From the IMG/VR virus record IMGVR_UViG_2541047706_000009: 38,923 bases of DNA; one strand, 5' to 3'. This DNA is from a virus. Lineage: Duplodnaviria; Heunggongvirae; Uroviricota; Caudoviricetes. The notes below the pieces were generated by a model. It was given only the letters and a program-made list of their open reading frames with translations, made no database searches and was not told the DNA's origin. A program made the position numbers and the translations under genes. Positions 1 to 35,956 of the stretch are shown one piece after another (positions within the stretch are counted from its first letter, which is position 1; each line of letters begins with the position of its first letter).

Positions 1-516
1 ATGAAATTTAAAAAATGTCTTCTGCCTGTGGCAATGTTAGCGTCATTCACTCTGGCAGGATGCCAGTCAAATGCTGACGATCATGCCGCCGATGTTTATC
101 AAACCGATCAACTGAATACCAAACAAGAAACTAAAACCGTTAATATTATTTCCATTCTTCCCGCAAAAGTTGCCGTAGACAACTCCCAAAATAAACGGAA
201 CGCACAAGCCTTCGGCGCGCTTATTGGCGCAGTCGCTGGCGGTGTTATCGGCCACAACGTCGGTTCTGGCAGCAATTCCGGAACGACGGCAGGGGCAGTT
301 GGCGGCGGAGCTGTAGGCGCGGCAGCGGGTTCTATGGTGAATGATAAAACCTTAGTGGAAGGTGTTTCTTTAACATATAAGGAAGGCACCAAAGTGTATA
401 CCTCTACCCAGGTGGGTAAAGAGTGCCAGTTTACGACAGGTTTAGCCGTTGTTATTACCACAACGTATAACGAAACGCGTATTCAGCCAAATACTAAATG
501 TCCTGAAAAGAGCTAA
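1..516 (+). CDS. Exported lipoprotein with Gly-rich (glycine-zipper-like) segment
   Basis: Lipobox LAGC after a signal peptide; Gly/Ala-rich stretch GALIGAVAGGVIGHNVGSG typical of SlyB/17-kDa-antigen-like lipoproteins. ORF begins at window base 1. Confidence 0.55.
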   Translation: MKFKKCLLPVAMLASFTLAGCQSNADDHAADVYQTDQLNTKQETKTVNIISILPAKVAVDNSQNKRNAQAFGALIGAVAGGVIGHNVGSGSNSGTTAGAVGGGAVGAAAGSMVNDKTLVEGVSLTYKEGTKVYTSTQVGKECQFTTGLAVVITTTYNETRIQPNTKCPEKS

Positions 517-5340: not shown

Positions 5341-5443
5341 GTTAAATCTCCAGATAGTCGCAGCACCCGTTGCGCCGCATATCTGGTTATTCTATTACCT
5401 GAAAAACCATATATGTATAGAAAGACTATAAATACCAATAGAT

Positions 5444-5460
5444 ATTACCTTTATGGTAAT
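5444..5460. promoter_or_regulatory. 17-bp palindromic operator-like site ATTACC-tttat-GGTAAT
   Basis: Perfect inverted repeat with 5-bp spacer in the divergent tailspike / candidate-antirepressor intergenic region; same motif as the sites flanking the repressor gene. Confidence 0.55.
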
Positions 5461-5496: not shown

Positions 5497-5516
5497 TACT
5501 GTATAAATATACAGTT
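5497..5516. promoter_or_regulatory. LexA (SOS) box
   Basis: TACTGTATAAATATACAGTT matches the consensus TACTGTATATATATACAGTA at 18/20 with perfect CTGT-N8-ACAG; sits 20 nt upstream of the ATG at 5536. Confidence 0.7.
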
Positions 5517-5535: not shown

Positions 5536-5793
5536 ATGCAGCGGTATCACTATCCACTGGAAGACGGATTTACCGAAAGGATTCACACGCCGGGAGGCGT
5601 CAGGTCACTGGTGGAGGGATCGCACTTGATGAAATTACTCCGGGATCTCGATAAGGATGGATTTAATGTCGATGGCCCACTTGCCGAACTGACTGCACTG
5701 ATTAACTACGTCACCAGCTCACAGATGTCTATGCAGGATCTGCAAACACATCTCGACTATTGTGCCGAACAATTACGAAAACAAACCACATAA
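5536..5793 (+). CDS. Small SOS-regulated protein, candidate antirepressor
   Basis: 85 aa (MQRYHYPLEDGF..). GGAGA RBS 7 nt upstream; promoter region carries a LexA box and an operator-like palindrome. Function inferred from regulatory context only. Confidence 0.45.
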   Translation: MQRYHYPLEDGFTERIHTPGGVRSLVEGSHLMKLLRDLDKDGFNVDGPLAELTALINYVTSSQMSMQDLQTHLDYCAEQLRKQTT

Positions 5794-22363: not shown

Positions 22364-22401
22364 TTGACATTTAACGCACGAATTATTACCTTTCAGGTAA
22401 C
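22364..22401 (+). promoter_or_regulatory. Promoter-like TTGACA with operator-like palindrome ATTACC-tttca-GGTAAC
   Basis: TTGACA at 22364-22369; palindrome at 22385-22401 overlaps the -10 position. Faces the noncoding region and tRNA. Confidence 0.4.
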
Positions 22402-22721: not shown

Positions 22722-22798
22722 GTGGCATTAGCTCAGTTGGACAGAGCAACCGCCTTCTAAGCGGTTGGTCGCAGGTTCGAATCCTGCATGCCACGCCA
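22722..22798 (+). tRNA. tRNA-Arg (anticodon UCU), phage-encoded
   Basis: Cloverleaf readable by eye: acceptor GTGGCAT/ATGCCAC, D-arm GCTCAGTTGGACAGAGC, anticodon stem ACCGC/GCGGT with loop CTTCTAA, T-arm GCAGGTTCGAATCCTGC, discriminator G and encoded CCA. Confidence 0.85.
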
Positions 22799-25311: not shown

Positions 25312-25904
25312 TGATTGCCATCCTGACGTTCTTTCAGTCTCTTCCTGGCTGCCGCTATGCGATCAGCAATTGTCACATTCACATTAACATCCAGGCGTTC
25401 TTTGAATGCGTTGACGTCGACGTGCTTACCAATCAGTTCGAGGTTCTTCACCTTGTCAGGCCATTTAATTTTTTTGAGGATTGTCTCTATCGAATCCTCG
25501 TTCATGTTCATGATGGTCGATGACAGATCAAAGCCACTAAGCGTAGTGCGCCAGATTTTCGGCCACTCACGGATTGGTTTAAGGCTCCCATCGTCGTTGA
25601 GGATATCGATCACGTCCATCTGGTCGATCTCCACCAGGCGCATGAGAACGTAATCAGCACTGACGCGCATTCGTTTGTTGCGCTCCTCCATCAACTCGGC
25701 AATCCGTTTTTGAATGCGTTCATCGCGCATCATGACACTGGCTTTAACTGCCGCTGTATTTGGGGAGAATCCTGCGTTAATCGCTGCCTGAGTCTGGTTT
25801 TCAGGCGTTTTGATGTATGACTGGCAATAAGCCTCCTGCATTGCTGTTAGTGGCTTAAATTGCGTTGATTTGCGTTTATAGGTTTTAGGTTCAGCAGGCA
25901 TCAT
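25308..25904 (-). CDS. Terminase small subunit
   Basis: About 198 aa from ATGATG at 25904 with GGTGG RBS (ORF-track start 25982 trimmed because a terminator lies inside the extension). Confidence 0.6.
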   Translation of the reverse strand: MMPAEPKTYKRKSTQFKPLTAMQEAYCQSYIKTPENQTQAAINAGFSPNTAAVKASVMMRDERIQKRIAELMEERNKRMRVSADYVLMRLVEIDQMDVIDILNDDGSLKPIREWPKIWRTTLSGFDLSSTIMNMNEDSIETILKKIKWPDKVKNLELIGKHVDVNAFKERLDVNVNVTIADRIAAARKRLKERQDGNQ

Positions 25905-25911
25905 AACCACC

Positions 25912-25943
25912 GTGGTAATAGTTACCGTTGTGGTAATAGTACC
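25912..25943. repeat. Tandem repeat GTGGTAATAGT(T)ACC x2 in the terminase leader
   Basis: Two adjacent copies separated by gtt; each holds GGTAAT and TACC half-site-like elements. Confidence 0.4.
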
Positions 25944-30018: not shown

Positions 30019-30035
30019 TTTACCTCTGAGGTAAT
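30019..30035. promoter_or_regulatory. Operator-like palindrome TTTACC-tctga-GGTAAT
   Basis: Lies 3 nt upstream of the DUF1064 start codon and includes its RBS. Confidence 0.5.
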
Positions 30036-30080
30036 TAAAAACCACATAAGACACGAAATCAATAGATTTTAGAATATTTT

Positions 30081-30097
30081 ATTACCTAACAGGTAAT
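30081..30097. promoter_or_regulatory. Operator-like palindrome ATTACC-taaca-GGTAAT
   Basis: Perfect site between the P-like gene stop and the DUF1064 gene. Confidence 0.5.
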
Positions 30098-30133: not shown

Positions 30134-30934
30134 TTACTTGATAAATCCTGCCGCCTTTCCCCGCCTGTATTCCTCCATCAGCCACTGCGCCGGTGTTATT
30201 CCCCCAAGGGTGGCGGCGTTAGGCATGCACCCGAAACTTCGCCCTGGTGGATGGTAAACGTCTCTCCCTGTGTCCGGAGGTGTACTCATGGGTTCTGGCT
30301 TTGCCTGTATGCTGATCACCGGATCGGGTATCTGCTGTCCGGAAGCCACCTTTTTCGCCCAATCATCGAGCAGCCTGCGCGCGTGTTTCTCAACCTCAAT
30401 CTCGCTAAGCTGGCGCTGATACATTGCACGGCGGGTATCACATACGACCCAGTACATAACCGGATGTCGCCACGGGAATCTTTCGGGACCACCAGGATAT
30501 AAACTTTTTTCCTTGCTGTACCGGTGAAACTCCGCCATCACATCGTCAATGGTGACGCCAAGAACCATCTTGCTGTCTTTGCACCACTTGATAAATTGCC
30601 CTGGAGACGGCCAGAACGGAGATTCACTGGCGCGGGCGTGGCGCATACCAGCAGAAACCTGTTCACGGGTTCGGATCCCCCCTTCGGCAAACGCAGCAAT
30701 CCACTGCTGTTTTGCAGCAACTTCCTGCTCTGGCGTCTTCAGGTTGGTTACCACTGCCGCCGGAAACAGTTGTTTCAGCTGTTTAAAAAGGGCATCAACA
30801 AGCCTCTCTGCTGACATGTTCACCACATTGTCATTGTTGACGTACTGATGCTCATAACCTGACATGCGAGAAAGGGCTTCTCCGTCACGGTTTTGTATCG
30901 CGGTAAAAACGTTGTTCACAAGAAATCCTCCCAT
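30134..30934 (-). CDS. Replication protein P-like (helicase loader)
   Basis: 266 aa; block ..MRHARASESPFWPSPGQFIKWC.. matches lambda P ..MRVARRQNRPFLPSPGQFVAWC.., and the N-terminal region also aligns. Confidence 0.75.
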   Translation of the reverse strand: MGGFLVNNVFTAIQNRDGEALSRMSGYEHQYVNNDNVVNMSAERLVDALFKQLKQLFPAAVVTNLKTPEQEVAAKQQWIAAFAEGGIRTREQVSAGMRHARASESPFWPSPGQFIKWCKDSKMVLGVTIDDVMAEFHRYSKEKSLYPGGPERFPWRHPVMYWVVCDTRRAMYQRQLSEIEVEKHARRLLDDWAKKVASGQQIPDPVISIQAKPEPMSTPPDTGRDVYHPPGRSFGCMPNAATLGGITPAQWLMEEYRRGKAAGFIK

Positions 30935-31755
30935 GCTTCAGGGCTGTTCCAGTGCGGAACGTTGTTATCAGGTAATGTTGATTGCTTCTGTCTGCTAATC
31001 TGCAGCCGCCTTGCCAGCTTCTGCTCCCACTGTGCCTGATGGTATGCCTTACCCTCAGCCATCCAGTAAATTCTGAACTCTGCAAGTTCCTGTGCCGTTG
31101 GCAGACTGTCCAGGTAGATCCCCTGCAATGAGCTTTTCCGAAGAAAGTCATCTGATGGCTGCCATTGTTCATGCATGACAAATTTGCCTAATTGCCCTGG
31201 CCCACCAGGAGGAACAAAGTTATTCATCACGGCGTTGTTTGCGCCGGGGTCATGAGGCACAGAATCCCCGCTTTTTGTCCTGCTCTCCCTCTCTTGGTTA
31301 AATGACTGGTTATATGACTGGTTCTGGATCCCGTTTTTGGGATCATTCAACATCCCGTTTTTGGGATCATTCAACATCCCGTTTTTGGGATCATTCAACA
31401 TCCCGTTTTTGGGTATATTCCCGTTTTCGGTAACATTACCGTTTTCGGGTTCATTACCCCCCTCCCGGTTGCCTTTAATGTTCCCGTTTTTGGTTATATT
31501 AAGAGAGAAAACCCGTACTCTTTTCGTCGCCCCCTTTCTCTCTCCGGTATCTGAAATAAGCCCCATTTTCATGAGCGATATAAGCCCGGCCTGCACGGTT
31601 TTTTTATTCAGGCAAGTGTCTTTAACGAGGCGTTCTATGCTGGGGTAGCAGAGGTTATATTCATCGGCTCTGTCAGCCATCGAGAGCAGTATGAGCTTTA
31701 ATGATGAGCTACCTGGATCTGTCTCCCAGGCCCAATCTGTTGCATGTCTGCTCAT
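30916..31755 (-). CDS. Replication initiator O-like protein containing the origin iterons
   Basis: 279 aa; helical N-terminal domain; the central region encodes the repeated PKNGMLND peptide from the iterons; directly upstream of the P-like gene; GGAG RBS. Confidence 0.65.
   Translation of the reverse strand: MSRHATDWAWETDPGSSSLKLILLSMADRADEYNLCYPSIERLVKDTCLNKKTVQAGLISLMKMGLISDTGERKGATKRVRVFSLNITKNGNIKGNREGGNEPENGNVTENGNIPKNGMLNDPKNGMLNDPKNGMLNDPKNGIQNQSYNQSFNQERESRTKSGDSVPHDPGANNAVMNNFVPPGGPGQLGKFVMHEQWQPSDDFLRKSSLQGIYLDSLPTAQELAEFRIYWMAEGKAYHQAQWEQKLARRLQISRQKQSTLPDNNVPHWNSPEAWEDFL
31328..31458. repeat. Origin iterons: 3 perfect 24-bp repeats plus degenerate copies
   Basis: ATCCCGTTTTTGGGATCATTCAAC at 31328-31351, 31352-31375 and 31376-31399, then degenerate CCCGTTTTTGG / CCGTTTTCGG copies and an AT-rich stretch; each perfect unit contains GATC. 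Confidence 0.7.
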
Positions 31756-31770
31756 GATTAATCTCCGCTA

Positions 31771-31971
31771 TCAGCTTGAGTGTTGTGGGGAGGAATTAAT
31801 CATGATCTGCTTAATCTCTGCCCTGATGCGACGGTTTGATTCCATGGTGCACTCAACACAGTGTCCGTTGTAAACCCAGCGTTCACTGTCATGTCCGTGC
31901 TTACATGGTTTTCCGGTGTAGTAGCGTTTAAGTCCGCGCTTTGCGGCATCAATACGTGTAATGATTTCCAT
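31771..31971 (-). CDS. Small zinc-ribbon protein (CII-position gene)
   Basis: 66 aa from ATG 31971 (MEIITRIDAAKRG..) with C-x-H..C-x-x-C motif; sits between the cro-like and O-like genes. Confidence 0.4.
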   Translation of the reverse strand: MEIITRIDAAKRGLKRYYTGKPCKHGHDSERWVYNGHCVECTMESNRRIRAEIKQIMINSSPQHSS

Positions 31972-32050
31972 GGTAAGCCCTGTTATTAGTATTGGGATTA
32001 CGGTTATTTTGTGCTGACACAAAAAAAAGATCAACCATATTTGGTTTTTT

Positions 32051-32067
32051 ATTACCTTTGAGGTACG
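32051..32067. promoter_or_regulatory. Operator-like palindrome ATTACC-tttga-GGTACG
   Basis: Between the zinc-ribbon gene and the terminator that follows the cro-like gene. Confidence 0.4.
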
Positions 32068-32080
32068 AATAGATATGAAA

Positions 32081-32100
32081 AGACCGCCGGATGGCGGTCT
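32081..32100 (-). terminator. tR1-like terminator after the cro-like gene
   Basis: agaccgcc-ggat-ggcggtct hairpin followed on the minus strand by ttttcat. Confidence 0.55.
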
Positions 32101-32121
32101 ACAGAGGGTTGTGGCTGGATA

Positions 32122-32352
32122 TCATGAGTAGAAGAAGTATGCCAGTTCTGCTTTTGAGCGCAGCCATTGTCTTGTTTTACAGGCTTTAAAAAGCCCATTC
32201 ATCAATACCTTACCTGGCATTTTGCGCTTACCTGTTAAGTGAGTCTGGATATAGTGACTCGTCGTTCCGGCTTCCTGTGCGAAGGCTTCACGCTCATCCG
32301 GAGTAAGTGCAAGCCAGTGCTTTTTGAAATCGAAATGTCCGTTATCGCTCAT
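32122..32352 (-). CDS. Cro-like early regulator (first gene of rightward-type operon)
   Basis: 76-aa basic protein divergent from the repressor gene across an intergenic region with three operator-like palindromes. Confidence 0.45.
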   Translation of the reverse strand: MSDNGHFDFKKHWLALTPDEREAFAQEAGTTSHYIQTHLTGKRKMPGKVLMNGLFKACKTRQWLRSKAELAYFFYS

Positions 32353-32387
32353 AGCTATTGCCTGATATTTATTTCAGATAATAAATA

Positions 32388-32452
32388 TTCACCCATAAGG
32401 TAACAAAAATCAAGGATAGTTACCTGTGGGGTGCATTTACCTGTTGGGTAAT
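32388..32452. promoter_or_regulatory. OR-like region with three operator-like sites and divergent promoters
   Basis: TTCACC-cataa-GGTAAC (32388-32404), GTTACC-tgtgg-GGTGCA (32419-32435, weaker) and TTTACC-tgttg-GGTAAT (32436-32452). On the minus strand, a TTGATT -35 and GAATAT -10 flank the first site. Confidence 0.6.
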
Positions 32453-32506
32453 ATTGCTTTAAATTGAATCATCTACTGATTCATATATGAGGCGATTTTC
32501 CAGAAA

Positions 32507-33091
32507 ATGAAAAGTATCCAGGACGTCCGCAGGCAAAATCTCAACGACTTGATCGACCGTGAATGCAATGGTGTTCAGACGCGGATGGCAGAAAAACTTG
32601 GAACTCAGGCAAATCTGGTAAACCGCTGGGCTCTTGGCAAGAAGGTTATCGGCGACCAGGTTGCACGAAAAATTGAAGCTGCCGCCAATAAACCCCGTAA
32701 CTGGCTTGATATTGATCGTTCGCTTTCTCAGGAGGGTTTTCAGCCTGTCGGCCCGAGCGATATAGGTCAGCTGGCGGCTCACAACCTGGAACGCTGGATG
32801 AGCGAAAGCCGCGACCTTTCAACACAGGGAAAACTTCACCGCGCATCCGGCGTCGCCCAGGTGACAATCAGCCGCCTGTTAAACAATGAGGTCAGCGTTT
32901 CCATTTCCACCCTGGAGAATGTTGCATCCGCATTCGGGCGTCACGGCTATGAATTACTGATTCACCCGCACGACCCTGCGACCATCAACTATGATCGCTC
33001 GCGCTACGCATTGTTACCCGAAACCGAGAAAGCAAAGATCGAAAGTTACATTGAATTTGTCATCAACCAGAACGAAAAAAACAAACAATAA
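32507..33091 (+). CDS. Putative prophage repressor, tandem HTH, no S24 peptidase domain
   Basis: 194 aa with two helix-turn-helix-like segments (..VQTRMAEKLGTQANLVNRWALGKK.. and ..ASGVAQVTISRLLNNEVSVSISTLENVASAFG..); no Ala-Gly/Ser-Lys autocleavage signature. Flanked by operator clusters and followed by a terminator. Confidence 0.55.
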   Translation: MKSIQDVRRQNLNDLIDRECNGVQTRMAEKLGTQANLVNRWALGKKVIGDQVARKIEAAANKPRNWLDIDRSLSQEGFQPVGPSDIGQLAAHNLERWMSESRDLSTQGKLHRASGVAQVTISRLLNNEVSVSISTLENVASAFGRHGYELLIHPHDPATINYDRSRYALLPETEKAKIESYIEFVINQNEKNKQ

Positions 33092-33112
33092 AACCATATT
33101 TTTCAGTAAGTA

Positions 33113-33136
33113 AGCCGCCTTATGGCGGCTTTTTTA
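33113..33136 (+). terminator. Rho-independent terminator after the repressor gene
   Basis: agccgcc-ttat-ggcggct hairpin followed by TTTTTT. Confidence 0.65.
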
Positions 33137-33147
33137 TTGTCTATTCG

Positions 33148-33226
33148 ATTACCTAACGGGTAATTTTTTTAACTCATATCTATTGACATCAAACCATATA
33201 CGCATAATTATTACCTCAACGGTAAC
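33148..33226 (+). promoter_or_regulatory. OL/pL-like region with two operator-like sites and TTGACA
   Basis: ATTACC-taacg-GGTAAT (33148-33164), TTGACA at 33183-33188, ATTACC-tcaac-GGTAAC (33210-33226). Confidence 0.55.
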
Positions 33227-33244
33227 AGACCGAGGTAACAAGTT

Positions 33245-33397
33245 ATGCAGTGGAAAATCATCAACGGTTGGTACTGCGTTACTGCATGCGGATTCATGAG
33301 CTGGAAGTTCCGCACCTTACAGGAAGGCATTAAGTGGGCTTTCGTCAGCAAAGAAGCTAGCGATGTGGCCAACGATAACGAGATATGGGAGGGCTGA
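33245..33397 (+). CDS. Small protein (50 aa), first gene of leftward-type early operon
   Basis: ATG with GAGGT RBS 9 nt upstream; below the ORF-track size cutoff, found by manual translation. Confidence 0.35.
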   Translation: MQWKIINGWYCVTACGFMSWKFRTLQEGIKWAFVSKEASDVANDNEIWEG

Positions 33398-33399
33398 TA

Positions 33400-33699
33400 A
33401 TGAACGTTAATCAGCAGAAAAATCTTCAAAAAATCATGCTGGCATTCGACAAGGACTACCGTCTGTCAGAACAGCTATATGACCGACAAGTTGAACTGAT
33501 TGAGAGTATCCGGCTTCATCAACTGGCATCAACTTTCGACGTTGTAACAGTTAAAGGCGTTCGCCAGGAAGTACTGGAGGCCGCTAAAGACAGCCCTGAG
33601 TTCGAAGAACTAATGGATGCCTACCGGCGCGAGGCAATGGCAATTATCGCCCGCTGGGATCTGGCTGATCAGCTTGATGGGCAGAGGGACGCGGCATGA
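33400..33699 (+). CDS. Hypothetical early protein
   Basis: 99 aa from ATG 33400 with GGGAGGG RBS; its stop overlaps the next start (ATGA). Confidence 0.45.
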   Translation: MNVNQQKNLQKIMLAFDKDYRLSEQLYDRQVELIESIRLHQLASTFDVVTVKGVRQEVLEAAKDSPEFEELMDAYRREAMAIIARWDLADQLDGQRDAA

Positions 33700-33902
33700 A
33701 ACCAACACTCCTCTCATTGCTGCGAGGTGGAAAACACAGCATCCGAGATATGGCAAAGATTCTTGGTATCTCAAGATCGAAGGTTTCTTGGTTCATCGCT
33801 GAGCTTGAACGTCGCAAATGGGTAGAGGTAACCATGAGCGCAATATATTTCCACGATGGAACCCGTTCCAACAAGCAGAACGAATACAAGGTTAAGTTAT
33901 GA
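33696..33902 (+). CDS. Small HTH DNA-binding protein
   Basis: 68 aa with helix-turn-helix-like segment (SIRDMAKILGISRSKVSWFIAEL); coupled to both neighbours by ATGA overlaps. Confidence 0.45.
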   Translation: MKPTLLSLLRGGKHSIRDMAKILGISRSKVSWFIAELERRKWVEVTMSAIYFHDGTRSNKQNEYKVKL

Positions 33903-34720
33903 ATACTGGCATCTATTTCGACATCAGCAATGAGGACTACCACGCCGGTGACGGCGTGAGTAAGTCGCAACTGGACATGGTTGCCAAGAATCCGGCGCTT
34001 CTTAAATGGGTTCAGGCAGCACCAGAAGACGAAGAGAAAAAGTCTGCACTGGATATGGGAACCGCATTGCACTGTCTGCTTCTGGAGCCTAGAGAGTTCG
34101 ACAAACGCTTCATTGTTTCACCGAAATTCGATCGTCGGACGAAACAAGGTAAAGCTGACGAAGAGGCATTTCTTCGTGATGTGGCGGATATGGGGATTAC
34201 GGTACTTGATGCCGAGCAGTGGCGGAAACTGGAGCTGATGCGTGATAGCGCAATGGCTCACCCGGCGGCACGCTGGATGTTGGAAGCACCTGGTTACTGC
34301 GAAGCATCAATGTACTGGAACGATGAAGAGACGGGTGAGTTGTGCCGAATTCGTCCAGACAAATGGCTGAACGAGCACAACGTGATCGTCGACGTGAAAA
34401 AGGTTGCAGATATGGACCGTTTTGCACGCCACATCGAGGAATTCCGCTACCACGTGCAGGACGCAATGTACCGCGAAGGCGCAATGAGGGTTACTGGTCA
34501 GCCGCATGGTTTTTTCTTTCTTGCCGTGAGCGAAAGCATTGATTGTGGTCGGTATCCGGTACGCGTGTTCGAGCTGGATGCGCAGGATGTCGATGCCGGG
34601 CACGCTCTGTTCCGCCGGGATCTGAATACCTATCACGAATGCCGCATCAATGATGAATGGGGCGGTGTGGAAATCATTAAACGCCCTGAGTGGGCACGCA
34701 AACAGGATATGTACATATGA
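33899..34720 (+). CDS. PD-(D/E)XK-type exonuclease (RecE/YqaJ-like recombination nuclease)
   Basis: 273 aa; acidic residues and a D-x-K block (IVDVKKV) consistent with a PD-(D/E)XK fold; immediately upstream of and coupled to the annealing-protein gene. Confidence 0.55.
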   Translation: MNTGIYFDISNEDYHAGDGVSKSQLDMVAKNPALLKWVQAAPEDEEKKSALDMGTALHCLLLEPREFDKRFIVSPKFDRRTKQGKADEEAFLRDVADMGITVLDAEQWRKLELMRDSAMAHPAARWMLEAPGYCEASMYWNDEETGELCRIRPDKWLNEHNVIVDVKKVADMDRFARHIEEFRYHVQDAMYREGAMRVTGQPHGFFFLAVSESIDCGRYPVRVFELDAQDVDAGHALFRRDLNTYHECRINDEWGGVEIIKRPEWARKQDMYI

Positions 34721-35658
34721 GCAACGACATCGCAAACATCAACGCACCAGTAGACACAGCAATCGCTGGAACTGCTGCAACTATTTTCAGCCCAGACGGC
34801 TTGAACCAACTGATGAAATTCGCCGAGGTAATGGCGCAAAGCCGCGTAACGGTACCGGCGCACCTCGCCGGGAAACCAGCTGATTGCATGGCCGTGGCAA
34901 TGCAGGCTGCGCAGTGGGGAATGAACCCGTTTGCCGTGGCTCAGAAAACCCATGTTGTGAACGGCACGCTAGGTTATGAAGCCCAATTAGTAAACGCAGT
35001 TATCTCAACGATGTCGCCAACAAAAGATCGCATCAACTACGAGTGGTTTGGGCCGTGGGAACGCGTGATCGGTAAGTTTGTTGAGAAAACATCCAAAAAC
35101 GGCAATCCATATATCGCACCAGGCTGGACTCTAAAAGACGAAGAAGGCTGCGGTGTTCGCGTATGGGCAACCATGAAGGGCGAGGATCAACCTCGAGTGC
35201 TTGAGTTAATGCTGTCTCAAGCACAGGTAAGAAACTCCACACTTTGGGCCAGTGATCCGAAACAACAACTCGCATACCTTGCGACAAAACGCTGGTCTCG
35301 CCTGCACTGTCCTGACGTAATCATGGGCGTCTACACCCCAGACGAATTACAGGAAACGGCACCGCGCGTTGAGCGAGACATTACTCCGCAAACGACAACT
35401 GCTGCGGGAATGAACAGTCTGATCAACGCTAAAACAGTGAAAAAGCCTGATGAGCAAACGCGTAAAGCGGATAGCCGTGATCCAGAAGAAATGCTGATGG
35501 CCTTTACCAGCGCAGCGATGAATTACAGCACTGTCTCCGAACTGGATAAGGCTTACAAATACATTGCACAAAAACTTTCAGATGATGACGAACTGCTGGC
35601 AAAAGCCACCGACGTTTACAGCGTTCGTCGGGAAGAATTAAACGAAATATCTATGTAA
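34717..35658 (+). CDS. RecT/Bet-family single-strand annealing protein
   Basis: 313 aa from ATG 34717; block ..CMAVAMQAAQWGMNPFAVAQKTHVVNG.. parallels the Bet/RecT core (..LLIVANQYGLNPWTKEIYAF..). Confidence 0.6.
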   Translation: MSNDIANINAPVDTAIAGTAATIFSPDGLNQLMKFAEVMAQSRVTVPAHLAGKPADCMAVAMQAAQWGMNPFAVAQKTHVVNGTLGYEAQLVNAVISTMSPTKDRINYEWFGPWERVIGKFVEKTSKNGNPYIAPGWTLKDEEGCGVRVWATMKGEDQPRVLELMLSQAQVRNSTLWASDPKQQLAYLATKRWSRLHCPDVIMGVYTPDELQETAPRVERDITPQTTTAAGMNSLINAKTVKKPDEQTRKADSRDPEEMLMAFTSAAMNYSTVSELDKAYKYIAQKLSDDDELLAKATDVYSVRREELNEISM

Positions 35659-35707: not shown

Positions 35708-35956
35708 ATGAAAGGTGCATTAGGTAAGAAGGAACTCCTGGCGGTGGTGCCACTGTCATGGAGCACTATCGACCGTATGGAGCGCGCAGGTGAATTTCCT
35801 AAACGCTGGTATATCACTGACAAACGCTGCGCATGGAACCGTGACGAAGTTGAGCGTTGGCTTGATGAACGTCAGGCAGCAAGCCCGGCAGAGTTCCAGG
35901 GTAAAAAGCCTCCTGTTCAGCAACGTGTATATCGTCCTGTGAGCAACGCTGCATGA
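35708..35956 (+). CDS. AlpA/Xis-family DNA-binding protein (candidate excisionase)
   Basis: 82 aa; ..LSWSTIDRMERAGEFPKRWYITDKRCAWNRDEVERWL.. fits the AlpA/Vis-type HTH pattern; lies about 1.7 kb from the P4-type integrase. Confidence 0.55.
   Translation: MKGALGKKELLAVVPLSWSTIDRMERAGEFPKRWYITDKRCAWNRDEVERWLDERQAASPAEFQGKKPPVQQRVYRPVSNAA

Follow-up and report, generated by a model that had tools for sequence, protein, structure and literature searches.

The rep locus and its phage

The stretch of DNA analyzed here, 38,923 nt in all and called the window below, carries a 194-aa ORF, rep, at positions 32507-33091 of the plus strand. An earlier note had described it as a putative immunity repressor gene lying between operator clusters and followed by a strong terminator, with only a distant SD-like GAGG ahead of its start codon, and each of these features was found where it had been described. 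The ATG is the first possible start past an in-frame TGA at 32477, there being no earlier start codon, and the N-terminal MKSI is invariant in 23 homologues; the start of rep is thereby fixed, and the ORF is real. The elements of the locus, from left to right, are the following.

32122-32352, minus strand: gene for a cro-like small regulator, divergent from rep (phrog_35, E 5.6e-13; syntenic with epsilon15 gp39 and phiV10 p41)
32378-32413, minus strand: putative pR-like promoter region, driving the cro-like gene (consensus scan: TTGTTA-17-TATTAT, 32406-32378)
32389-32403, no strand: operator OR1, TCACCCATAAGGTAA, one mismatch, within the core of the leftward pR-like promoter (position and half-sites kept in 12 loci)
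32420-32434, no strand: operator OR2, TTACCTGTGGGGTGC, two mismatches, weak right half-site (12-locus comparison)
32436-32464, plus strand: candidate rep maintenance promoter, TTTACC-17-TTAAAT (predicted start ~32471, leader ~35 nt)
32437-32451, no strand: operator OR3, TTACCTGTTGGGTAA, perfect, overlapping the -35 (plus-strand TTTACC) of the candidate rep promoter
32489-32492, plus strand: distant SD-like GAGG, 14 nt before the rep ATG, with nothing closer
32507-33091, plus strand: rep, predicted lysogeny repressor, 194 aa (ORF; homology to 5D50_A, phiV10 p40, and ZX5 ORF21)
33112-33139, plus strand: intrinsic terminator of rep, also annotated in phiV10
33149-33163, no strand: operator OL2, TTACCTAACGGGTAA, perfect
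33183-33211, plus strand: predicted pL-like promoter of the recombination/early-left operon, TTGACA-17-AATTAT (10/12, consensus scan)
33211-33225, no strand: operator OL1, TTACCTCAACGGTAA, perfect, over the predicted pL start site

Over the 1.5 kb around rep, sixteen Escherichia phage records, with phiV10, vB_EcoP_PAS61, EC.W1-9, TL-2011b, and vB_EcoP_ZX5 among them, match the window at 96.7-98.6% identity, and the Enterobacter phages Tyrion and BUCT554 at ~77%. The identity between phiV10 and the window is ~98%, and the ZX5 genome alignment spans most of the window's length; the window is therefore essentially the whole genome of a phiV10-type phage or prophage. Those records that were inspected (phiV10, ZX5, Tyrion, and BUCT554 included) are placed in Uetakevirus, the genus of the epsilon15-like temperate podophages. 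A search of positions 31500-33600 against Rfam (E ≤ 0.1) returned no RNA families.

Rep is 99.5% identical to both phiV10 p40 and ZX5 ORF21, from which it differs only at residue 20 (F20C, the C being the allele in the window). This substitution was considered as a sign of a defective repressor and the idea was rejected, as 36 public contigs, some of them E. coli chromosomes, carry exactly this sequence. In a GenBank record of 2005, phiV10 p40 is annotated as a [quoted passage not shown], and epsilon15 gp38 is annotated as "repressor; HHpred 5d50_A".

Domains of Rep and the absence of a peptidase

The protein was divided into four parts, the roles of the last two being assigned by homology to SPC32H Rep.

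32507-32689, plus strand (aa 1-61): DNA-binding HTH domain
aa 62-82, plus strand: flexible linker
32753-32959, plus strand (aa 83-151): HTH-fold middle domain, putatively for dimerization
aa ~152-193, plus strand: C-terminal domain, putatively for tetramerization and Ant binding

SPC32H Rep in PDB entry 5D50 (chain A) matched Rep with an E-value of 4.9e-41, residues 1-190 being aligned with 2-197, and 5D4Z matched the C-terminal 100 residues (E 4e-20). By BLASTP, the two repressors are 41% identical over their full length (E 3e-52); taken by domain, the identity is 52% in the DNA-binding domain, 30% in the middle domain, and 49% in the C-terminal domain. Pfam found HTH_3 in two stretches of Rep, the best match covering residues 106-147 (E 1.1e-9), and gave a sub-threshold YdaS/HTH-type match to residues 21-61. 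The only NCBIfam matches, to RstR, HigA, and TreR, were all sub-threshold. An AlphaFold2 (AF2) model built from 24 homologues was of moderate confidence (mean pLDDT 72, pTM 0.41), the C-terminal domain being its least well modeled part. It consists of a helical N-terminal domain (residues 4-60), a disordered segment (residues 62-80), a five-helix domain (residues 83-151), and an extended segment followed by a long helix (residues 152-193). When this model was compared with the PDB by Foldseek, 5D50 and 5D4Z came first, followed by HTH proteins of the XRE family (NHTF, SinR, DdrO, and the N-terminal domain of P22 C2). The earlier description of Rep as a tandem-HTH protein was thus half right: Pfam and AF2 agree on two HTH-fold domains, but the second is the dimerization domain in SPC32H Rep, and a third domain had been missed.

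The same note had stated that Rep lacks a peptidase domain and an Ala-Gly cleavage site, and both statements were borne out. No S24 peptidase domain, with its Ser/Lys dyad, was found in Rep by Pfam at E ≤ 1, nor did the PDB sequence search give an S24 match, and there was no LexA/CI C-terminal catalytic domain among the 50 Foldseek matches listed. The C-terminal half of the AF2 model is helical, unlike the beta-rich S24 fold, and neither AG nor CG, the dipeptides at which cleavage would occur, is present anywhere in the 194 residues. With domain and cleavage site both absent, Rep falls outside the S24 autocleaving repressors. A peptidase is also needless here because, as described below, the genome carries an antirepressor gene under LexA control.

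Operators, promoters, and the rep leader

The operators share the 15-bp palindrome TTACC-N5-GGTAA, of which the 38.9 kb window holds eight perfect copies against an expectation of 0.01; with up to two mismatches allowed, there are 37 copies against 10.4 expected. A six-nucleotide spacing (TTACC-N6-GGTAA) was also tried and was rejected, since it gave mismatched matches only, whereas N5 fits. Three copies lie upstream of rep (beginning at 32389, 32420, and 32437) and two downstream (33149 and 33211), and the terminator between rep and the downstream pair is a hairpin at 33112-33131 with an 8-bp stem, six pairs of which are GC, followed by a T-run. The centers of OL2 and OL1 are 62 bp apart, a spacing equal to that in SPC32H.

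The cro-rep intergenic region was compared across 12 loci, too few for statistics, from six phages and six prophages (the latter from Superficieibacter, Erwinia, Pseudocitrobacter, Pseudescherichia, Kluyvera, and a Pseudomonas-labeled assembly). The three OR operators keep fixed positions throughout, and the half-sites TTACC and GGTAA are common to the phiV10 and epsilon15/SPC32H clades, which fits the conservation of the N-terminal recognition helix, NLVNRW. In the same way, the better-conserved DNA-binding and C-terminal domains of Rep fit the shared half-sites and an Ant that is 88% identical to that of SPC32H. The pR-like promoter has an alternative -35, TTGATT (32413-32408), within the block AAAAATCAA, which most of the 12 loci retain; the product of the cro-like gene that it would drive had no NCBIfam match. 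The precise placement of the promoters and the part played by each operator are inferred.

How the rep message begins is a separate matter. In view of the distant GAGG, the earlier note had raised the possibility of a leaderless mRNA like that of lambda cI from pRM, whose first nucleotide would be the A of the start codon. It is true that none of the 12 related loci has a functionally spaced SD sequence. A good -10 hexamer (TACAAT) ending 4 nt before the ATG is found only in epsilon15 and SPC32H; in the window and four other loci, a TTGAAT-like-16-TATGAG/TATAAG pair would give a leader of ~8-9 nt, with the GAGG inside the -10. The window, however, has only GATTTT/ATTTTC at the leaderless distance, with no -35, and these hexamers are not conserved; no -10 hexamer ending ~5-8 nt before the AUG and accompanied by a matching -35 was found in it. 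The only promoter-like pair on the plus strand that is kept in all 12 loci, TTTACC-(16-18)-T(T/C/A)(T/A)AAT, ends 38-44 nt before the ATG and predicts a leader of ~35 nt. Moreover, GAG(G/A/C) at -18 to -15 is retained in the phiV10 clade, although it is absent from the epsilon15 clade. On these patterns, a leaderless rep transcript in the window is unlikely.

The antirepressor gene and the probable lysis-lysogeny switch

The second component of the predicted switch lies ~27 kb from rep in window coordinates, and further operator copies are dispersed over the genome.

5445-5459, no strand: perfect Rep operator between the tailspike gene and ant (half-sites invariant in five phages; repressor site annotated in epsilon15)
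5497-5516, no strand: LexA box, TACTGTATAAATATACAGTT, ending ~20 nt before the ant ATG
5536-5793, plus strand: ant, predicted small antirepressor, 85 aa (PDB 5D50_E, "Anti-repressor protein", E 3.1e-47; 88% identical to SPC32H ant)
22386-22400, no strand: perfect operator upstream of the gp3/portal operon
25904-25936, no strand: operator pair at the start of the small-terminase gene, at 25904 (one mismatch) and 25922 (perfect) (epsilon15 equivalent: 12-27)
30020-30096, no strand: two perfect operators (30020 and 30082) in the interval between the lambda-P-like gene and the DUF1064 gene (epsilon15 equivalent: 35906-35922)

The core of the LexA box, CTGT-N8-ACAG, is present with zero mismatches as CTGTATAAATATACAG at 5499-5514. 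The box is at the same place in four of the five aligned Uetakevirus phages, a Klebsiella phage having a variant with one mismatch; together with the GGAG ribosome-binding site and the Rep operator of ant, it aligns with its counterparts in SPC32H, Tyrion, BUCT554, and that Klebsiella phage. No promoter scoring at least 9/12 was found upstream of ant by the consensus scan; read by eye, TAGCAA-18-TATAAA, which overlaps the LexA box, is a promoter candidate. No second copy of ant was found in the window, and Ant had no Pfam, NCBIfam, or Tum-like match. Rep homologues were found in 36 phage records and Ant homologues in 35; the two occur together and share their host genera (Escherichia, Salmonella, Klebsiella, and Enterobacter), and the records inspected were all Uetakevirus.

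Much of what may be said about function comes from the literature on homologues. According to PMC9986798, SPC32H Rep has an N-terminal DNA-binding domain, a middle dimerization domain (MDD), and a C-terminal domain (CAD, "TetDloop") that both tetramerizes the protein and binds the antirepressor Ant. PMC9638917 describes SPC32H Rep on DNA as a tetramer, which an Ant tetramer breaks by binding two Rep dimers, and according to a review Ant is made following LexA cleavage (PMC7380047). A recent preprint adds that Ant imposes a non-functional conformation on Rep and that the DNA-binding surface is not occluded (bioRxiv 2025.11.27.690993). For an E. coli member, overexpression of ZX5 ORF21 reduced free phage to zero and lowered holin mRNA by 99.97% and endolysin mRNA by 99.99% (PMC9782041). 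The earlier note had proposed testing immunity by expressing the gene in trans, and this is essentially that test, performed on a protein 99.5% identical to Rep; together with the homology to SPC32H Rep, it supports the view that rep encodes the immunity, or lysogeny, repressor.

We conclude that rep very probably encodes the repressor half of a Rep/Ant lysis-lysogeny switch of the SPC32H type, carried by a temperate podophage that resembles phiV10 (Uetakevirus). Every sequence-level defining feature of the SPC32H type that could be tested was found. By analogy, the N-terminal HTH of Rep would read TTACC-N5-GGTAA, the middle HTH-fold domain would dimerize the protein, and the C-terminal domain would tetramerize it. 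Bound at OR1-3 and OL1-2, Rep would keep both the leftward cro-like/replication operon and the rightward recombination operon off while rep itself stayed expressed, and it would probably also occupy the further operator copies before other transcription units. Following DNA damage, the host LexA would cleave itself and leave the box before ant; Ant would then be made, would bind the C-terminal domains of Rep, and would break the tetramer, so that Rep came off the DNA. The most likely induction route is thus SOS, LexA cleavage, Ant synthesis, and Rep inactivation. Rep, which is without a protease module, would not itself be cleaved at induction; SPC32H Rep, too, is reportedly not cleaved on SOS induction, a result ascribed to Kim & Ryu in 2013. 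That Rep represses in trans, binds DNA as a tetramer, and is taken apart by Ant is carried over from homologues, and the identity to the repressor of solved mechanism is only 41%, so that binding, oligomeric state, and the Ant interaction are to be read as analogies. The details of the SPC32H mechanism rest in turn on secondary descriptions, and the AF2 model, of moderate quality, is worst in the C-terminal domain to which the Ant interaction is assigned.

Three other readings of Rep were weighed. Were the middle domain to read DNA as well, Rep would be a true tandem-HTH binder, recognizing, for example, the palindrome and a second element, and would differ in function from SPC32H Rep. The strongest HTH_3 match does fall on this domain, at residues 106-147, and Q118, T120, and R123, at the canonical recognition-helix positions, are conserved in at least 90% of the 23 homologues. 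We nevertheless judge this improbable: in SPC32H Rep, as described in PMC9986798, it is the N-terminal domain that binds DNA and the middle domain that dimerizes. The middle domain is also the part least conserved with respect to SPC32H Rep (30%), yet the operator half-sites are identical, and the helix that is conserved is the N-terminal NLVNRW; beside the operators, no second conserved motif was seen except for promoter-like blocks. Membership of some other group of XRE-type regulators or antitoxins (HigA, VapI, or YdaS-like), rather than an immunity function, is suggested by matches to YdaS_toxin (20.2 bits, cut-off 30) and HigA (18.3, cut-off 47.7), and the record of phage BP9 bears the label "VapI antidote". 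Every such match is below its curated cut-off, however, and no toxin gene adjoins rep, whose neighbors are the divergent cro-like gene and the terminator. As Rep is, in addition, homologous over its full length to a phage repressor defined by experiment, and the nearly identical ZX5 protein represses lytic genes, an antitoxin is very improbable.

It might also be imagined that Rep is a LexA/CI-like repressor with a cryptic, much-diverged autocleavage module, subject to RecA-stimulated self-cleavage. All that speaks for this is what one would generally expect of lambdoid prophages inducible by SOS; what speaks against it is the lack of S24 in the Pfam search (E ≤ 1), the PDB search, and the 50 Foldseek matches listed, the lack of Ala-Gly and Cys-Gly, a C-terminal half that is helical and not beta-rich, and the presence of an Ant controlled by LexA. 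Reviews (PMC7380047) likewise give Ant-mediated induction for SPC32H-type phages and not repressor cleavage. The probability that we attach to self-cleavage is accordingly close to nil.

The reach of the Rep/Ant switch may extend beyond the two early promoters. Perfect operators precede terS, the gp3/portal operon, the tailspike gene, and the unit past the replication genes, that is, nearly every transcription unit, and the epsilon15 record also annotates dispersed repressor-binding sites, on bioinformatic grounds. Silencing by Rep across the genome is therefore a possibility, albeit a somewhat doubtful one, the functional roles of these sites being predictions; the papers cited here describe repression of the OR/OL type only. 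The predicted operator at 5445 sits ~40 bp upstream of the ant LexA box. Should this operator work, Rep and LexA together would form a double lock on ant (or on the divergent tailspike promoter), and at induction Ant would promote its own synthesis in a positive feedback loop.

Neither the architecture of Rep nor its regulation is new. The protein is annotated, crystal structures and a mechanism have been published, and there is an E. coli member that represses; the value of the finding for genome scanning is one of correct filing. In most records, Rep is labeled an "HTH regulator" and Ant a "hypothetical protein" because neither has a Pfam or NCBIfam model of its own. In the single experimental study of an E. 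coli member, that on ZX5, a Bro-N-fused protein distinct from the small Ant was tested as "the" antirepressor. A repressor with two HTH-fold domains and no peptidase in an epsilon15/phiV10-type prophage should direct attention to an antirepressor elsewhere in the genome, and the LexA box before ant lets the SOS-inducibility of widespread E. coli prophages be predicted.

Of the known systems, that of SPC32H (PDB 5D4Z and 5D50) is the closest; PMC7380047, PMC9638917, and PMC9986798 cite Kim & Ryu (2013) and Kim et al. (2016) for it. The likeness includes full-length homology of Rep, its length class and three-part layout, and operator half-sites TTACC and GGTAA with a 5-bp spacer. It extends to the order of replication genes, cro-like gene, OR, rep, OL, and recombination genes, and to the placement of ant between the tailspike and virion genes with a LexA box and a Rep operator before it. 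The differences are that the host of the window phage is E. coli, that the middle domain has diverged (30% identity), that the operator spacers in the window contain G/C (TGTTG, TAACG, and TCAAC) whereas those of SPC32H are A/T-only, and that SPC32H has TACAAT by the rep ATG where the window has the distant GAGG. Like lambda CI, P22 C2, and LexA, Rep has an XRE-type HTH at its N-terminus. Also shared are the divergent pRM/pR-like layout with its three operators, another group of operators at pL, the position and orientation on the genome map, and induction that responds to SOS. Unlike those repressors, Rep has neither S24 nor a cleavage site, and its SOS signal would arrive indirectly, via LexA and Ant; its unit would be a tetramer held by a dedicated C-terminal domain, and operators in the window are also scattered before late and structural operons. 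The earlier verdict of an atypical architecture therefore holds with respect to lambda, but among epsilon15-like phages this architecture is the documented norm and already stands in public records. Coliphage 186 Tum, the Gifsy and Fels-2 antirepressors, and N15 AntC follow the same logic as Rep/Ant with unrelated proteins, namely, as set out in PMC7380047, a non-cleavable repressor neutralized by a small LexA-repressed protein. Ant of the SPC32H type reportedly acts on the C-terminal domain of the repressor and does not compete for its DNA-binding surface.

Operators dispersed over the phage genome

Outside the cluster beside rep, extra predicted operators of the lysogeny repressor Rep lie between positions 5445 and 32066 of the window; all are intergenic, and the majority are perfect copies of the palindrome TTACC-N5-GGTAA.

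Extra predicted Rep operators in the window
5445-5459, TTACC-N5-GGTAA, in front of the tailspike/ant pair
22386-22400, operator in front of the gp3-portal operon
25904-25936, operators in front of the small-terminase gene
30020-30096, operators in front of the DUF1064 gene
32052-32066, operator-like site just past the cro terminator

These sites match one-to-one the features entered as "protein_bind: repressor" in the epsilon15 record. This suggests that most transcription units are silenced directly by Rep.

Upstream of the tailspike start, the window also carries the block TATTACC-N7-AACC-N-TATATG (5392-5415), the specified bases of which are invariant in all five aligned phages and which includes a lone operator half-site.

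Rep and antirepressor variants

Residue 20 of Rep (32564-32566) is Cys in the window and Phe in ORF21 of phage ZX5, and Phe is nearly invariant at this position in the family alignment; the comparison covered ORF21 and that alignment. C20 is a natural allele, as the exact sequence is present on 36 public contigs, E. coli chromosomes among them. All Rep members found were within Enterobacterales except one, a Rep of 51% identity that shares the three-operator layout, on a contig labelled Pseudomonas lundensis (L014, 4900-5484); this could reflect either contamination or a wider host range.

The protein tested as the "anti-repressor" of ZX5, ORF4 (PMC9782041), is a Bro-N protein; over its C-terminal 80 residues it shares 40% identity with the small SPC32H-type Ant. 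In ZX5 the genuine homologue of the small ant gene carries the annotation "hypothetical protein", and the Bro-fused gene is absent from the window.

Antirepressor-related genes of vB_EcoP_ZX5 (L015)
1078-1773, Bro-N gene ORF4
2089-2346, small ant homologue

Between phiV10-type and SPC32H-type phages, Ant (window 5536-5793) is 88% identical, whereas Rep (32507-33091) is only 41% identical, with 52% identity in its DNA-binding domain, 30% in the middle domain and 49% in the C-terminal domain. This raises the possibility that prophages of different hosts might cross-induce.

Early-right, replication and recombination genes

Features of the early-right and other regions of the window
22722-22798, + strand, tRNA-Arg (anticodon TCT), ARAGORN prediction
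30916-31755, minus strand, DnaT/HTH_36 replication-initiator gene
31295-31323 and 31403-31458, 12- and 18-bp repeats adjoining the 24-bp repeat
31328-31413, perfect 24-bp repeat, 3.6 copies, inside the initiator gene
32081-32100, minus strand, intrinsic terminator directly 3' of the 76-aa cro-like gene
33899-34720, PD-(D/E)XK exonuclease (DUF3799)
34690-35658, RecT

The predicted tRNA is flanked by the terminase and portal regions and is encoded on the other strand from the structural genes. With a predicted terminator between the cro-like and replication genes, and the operator-like site 32052-32066 next after it, early-right transcription would need read-through, antitermination or a second promoter.

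Within the initiator gene, the 24-bp repeat codes for PKNGMLND repeats, and the repeats are probably origin iterons, like those of lambda O. The recombination genes differ from those of phiV10, in that its record annotates one fused "recET" gene, whereas the exonuclease and RecT of the window are separate, overlapping ORFs.
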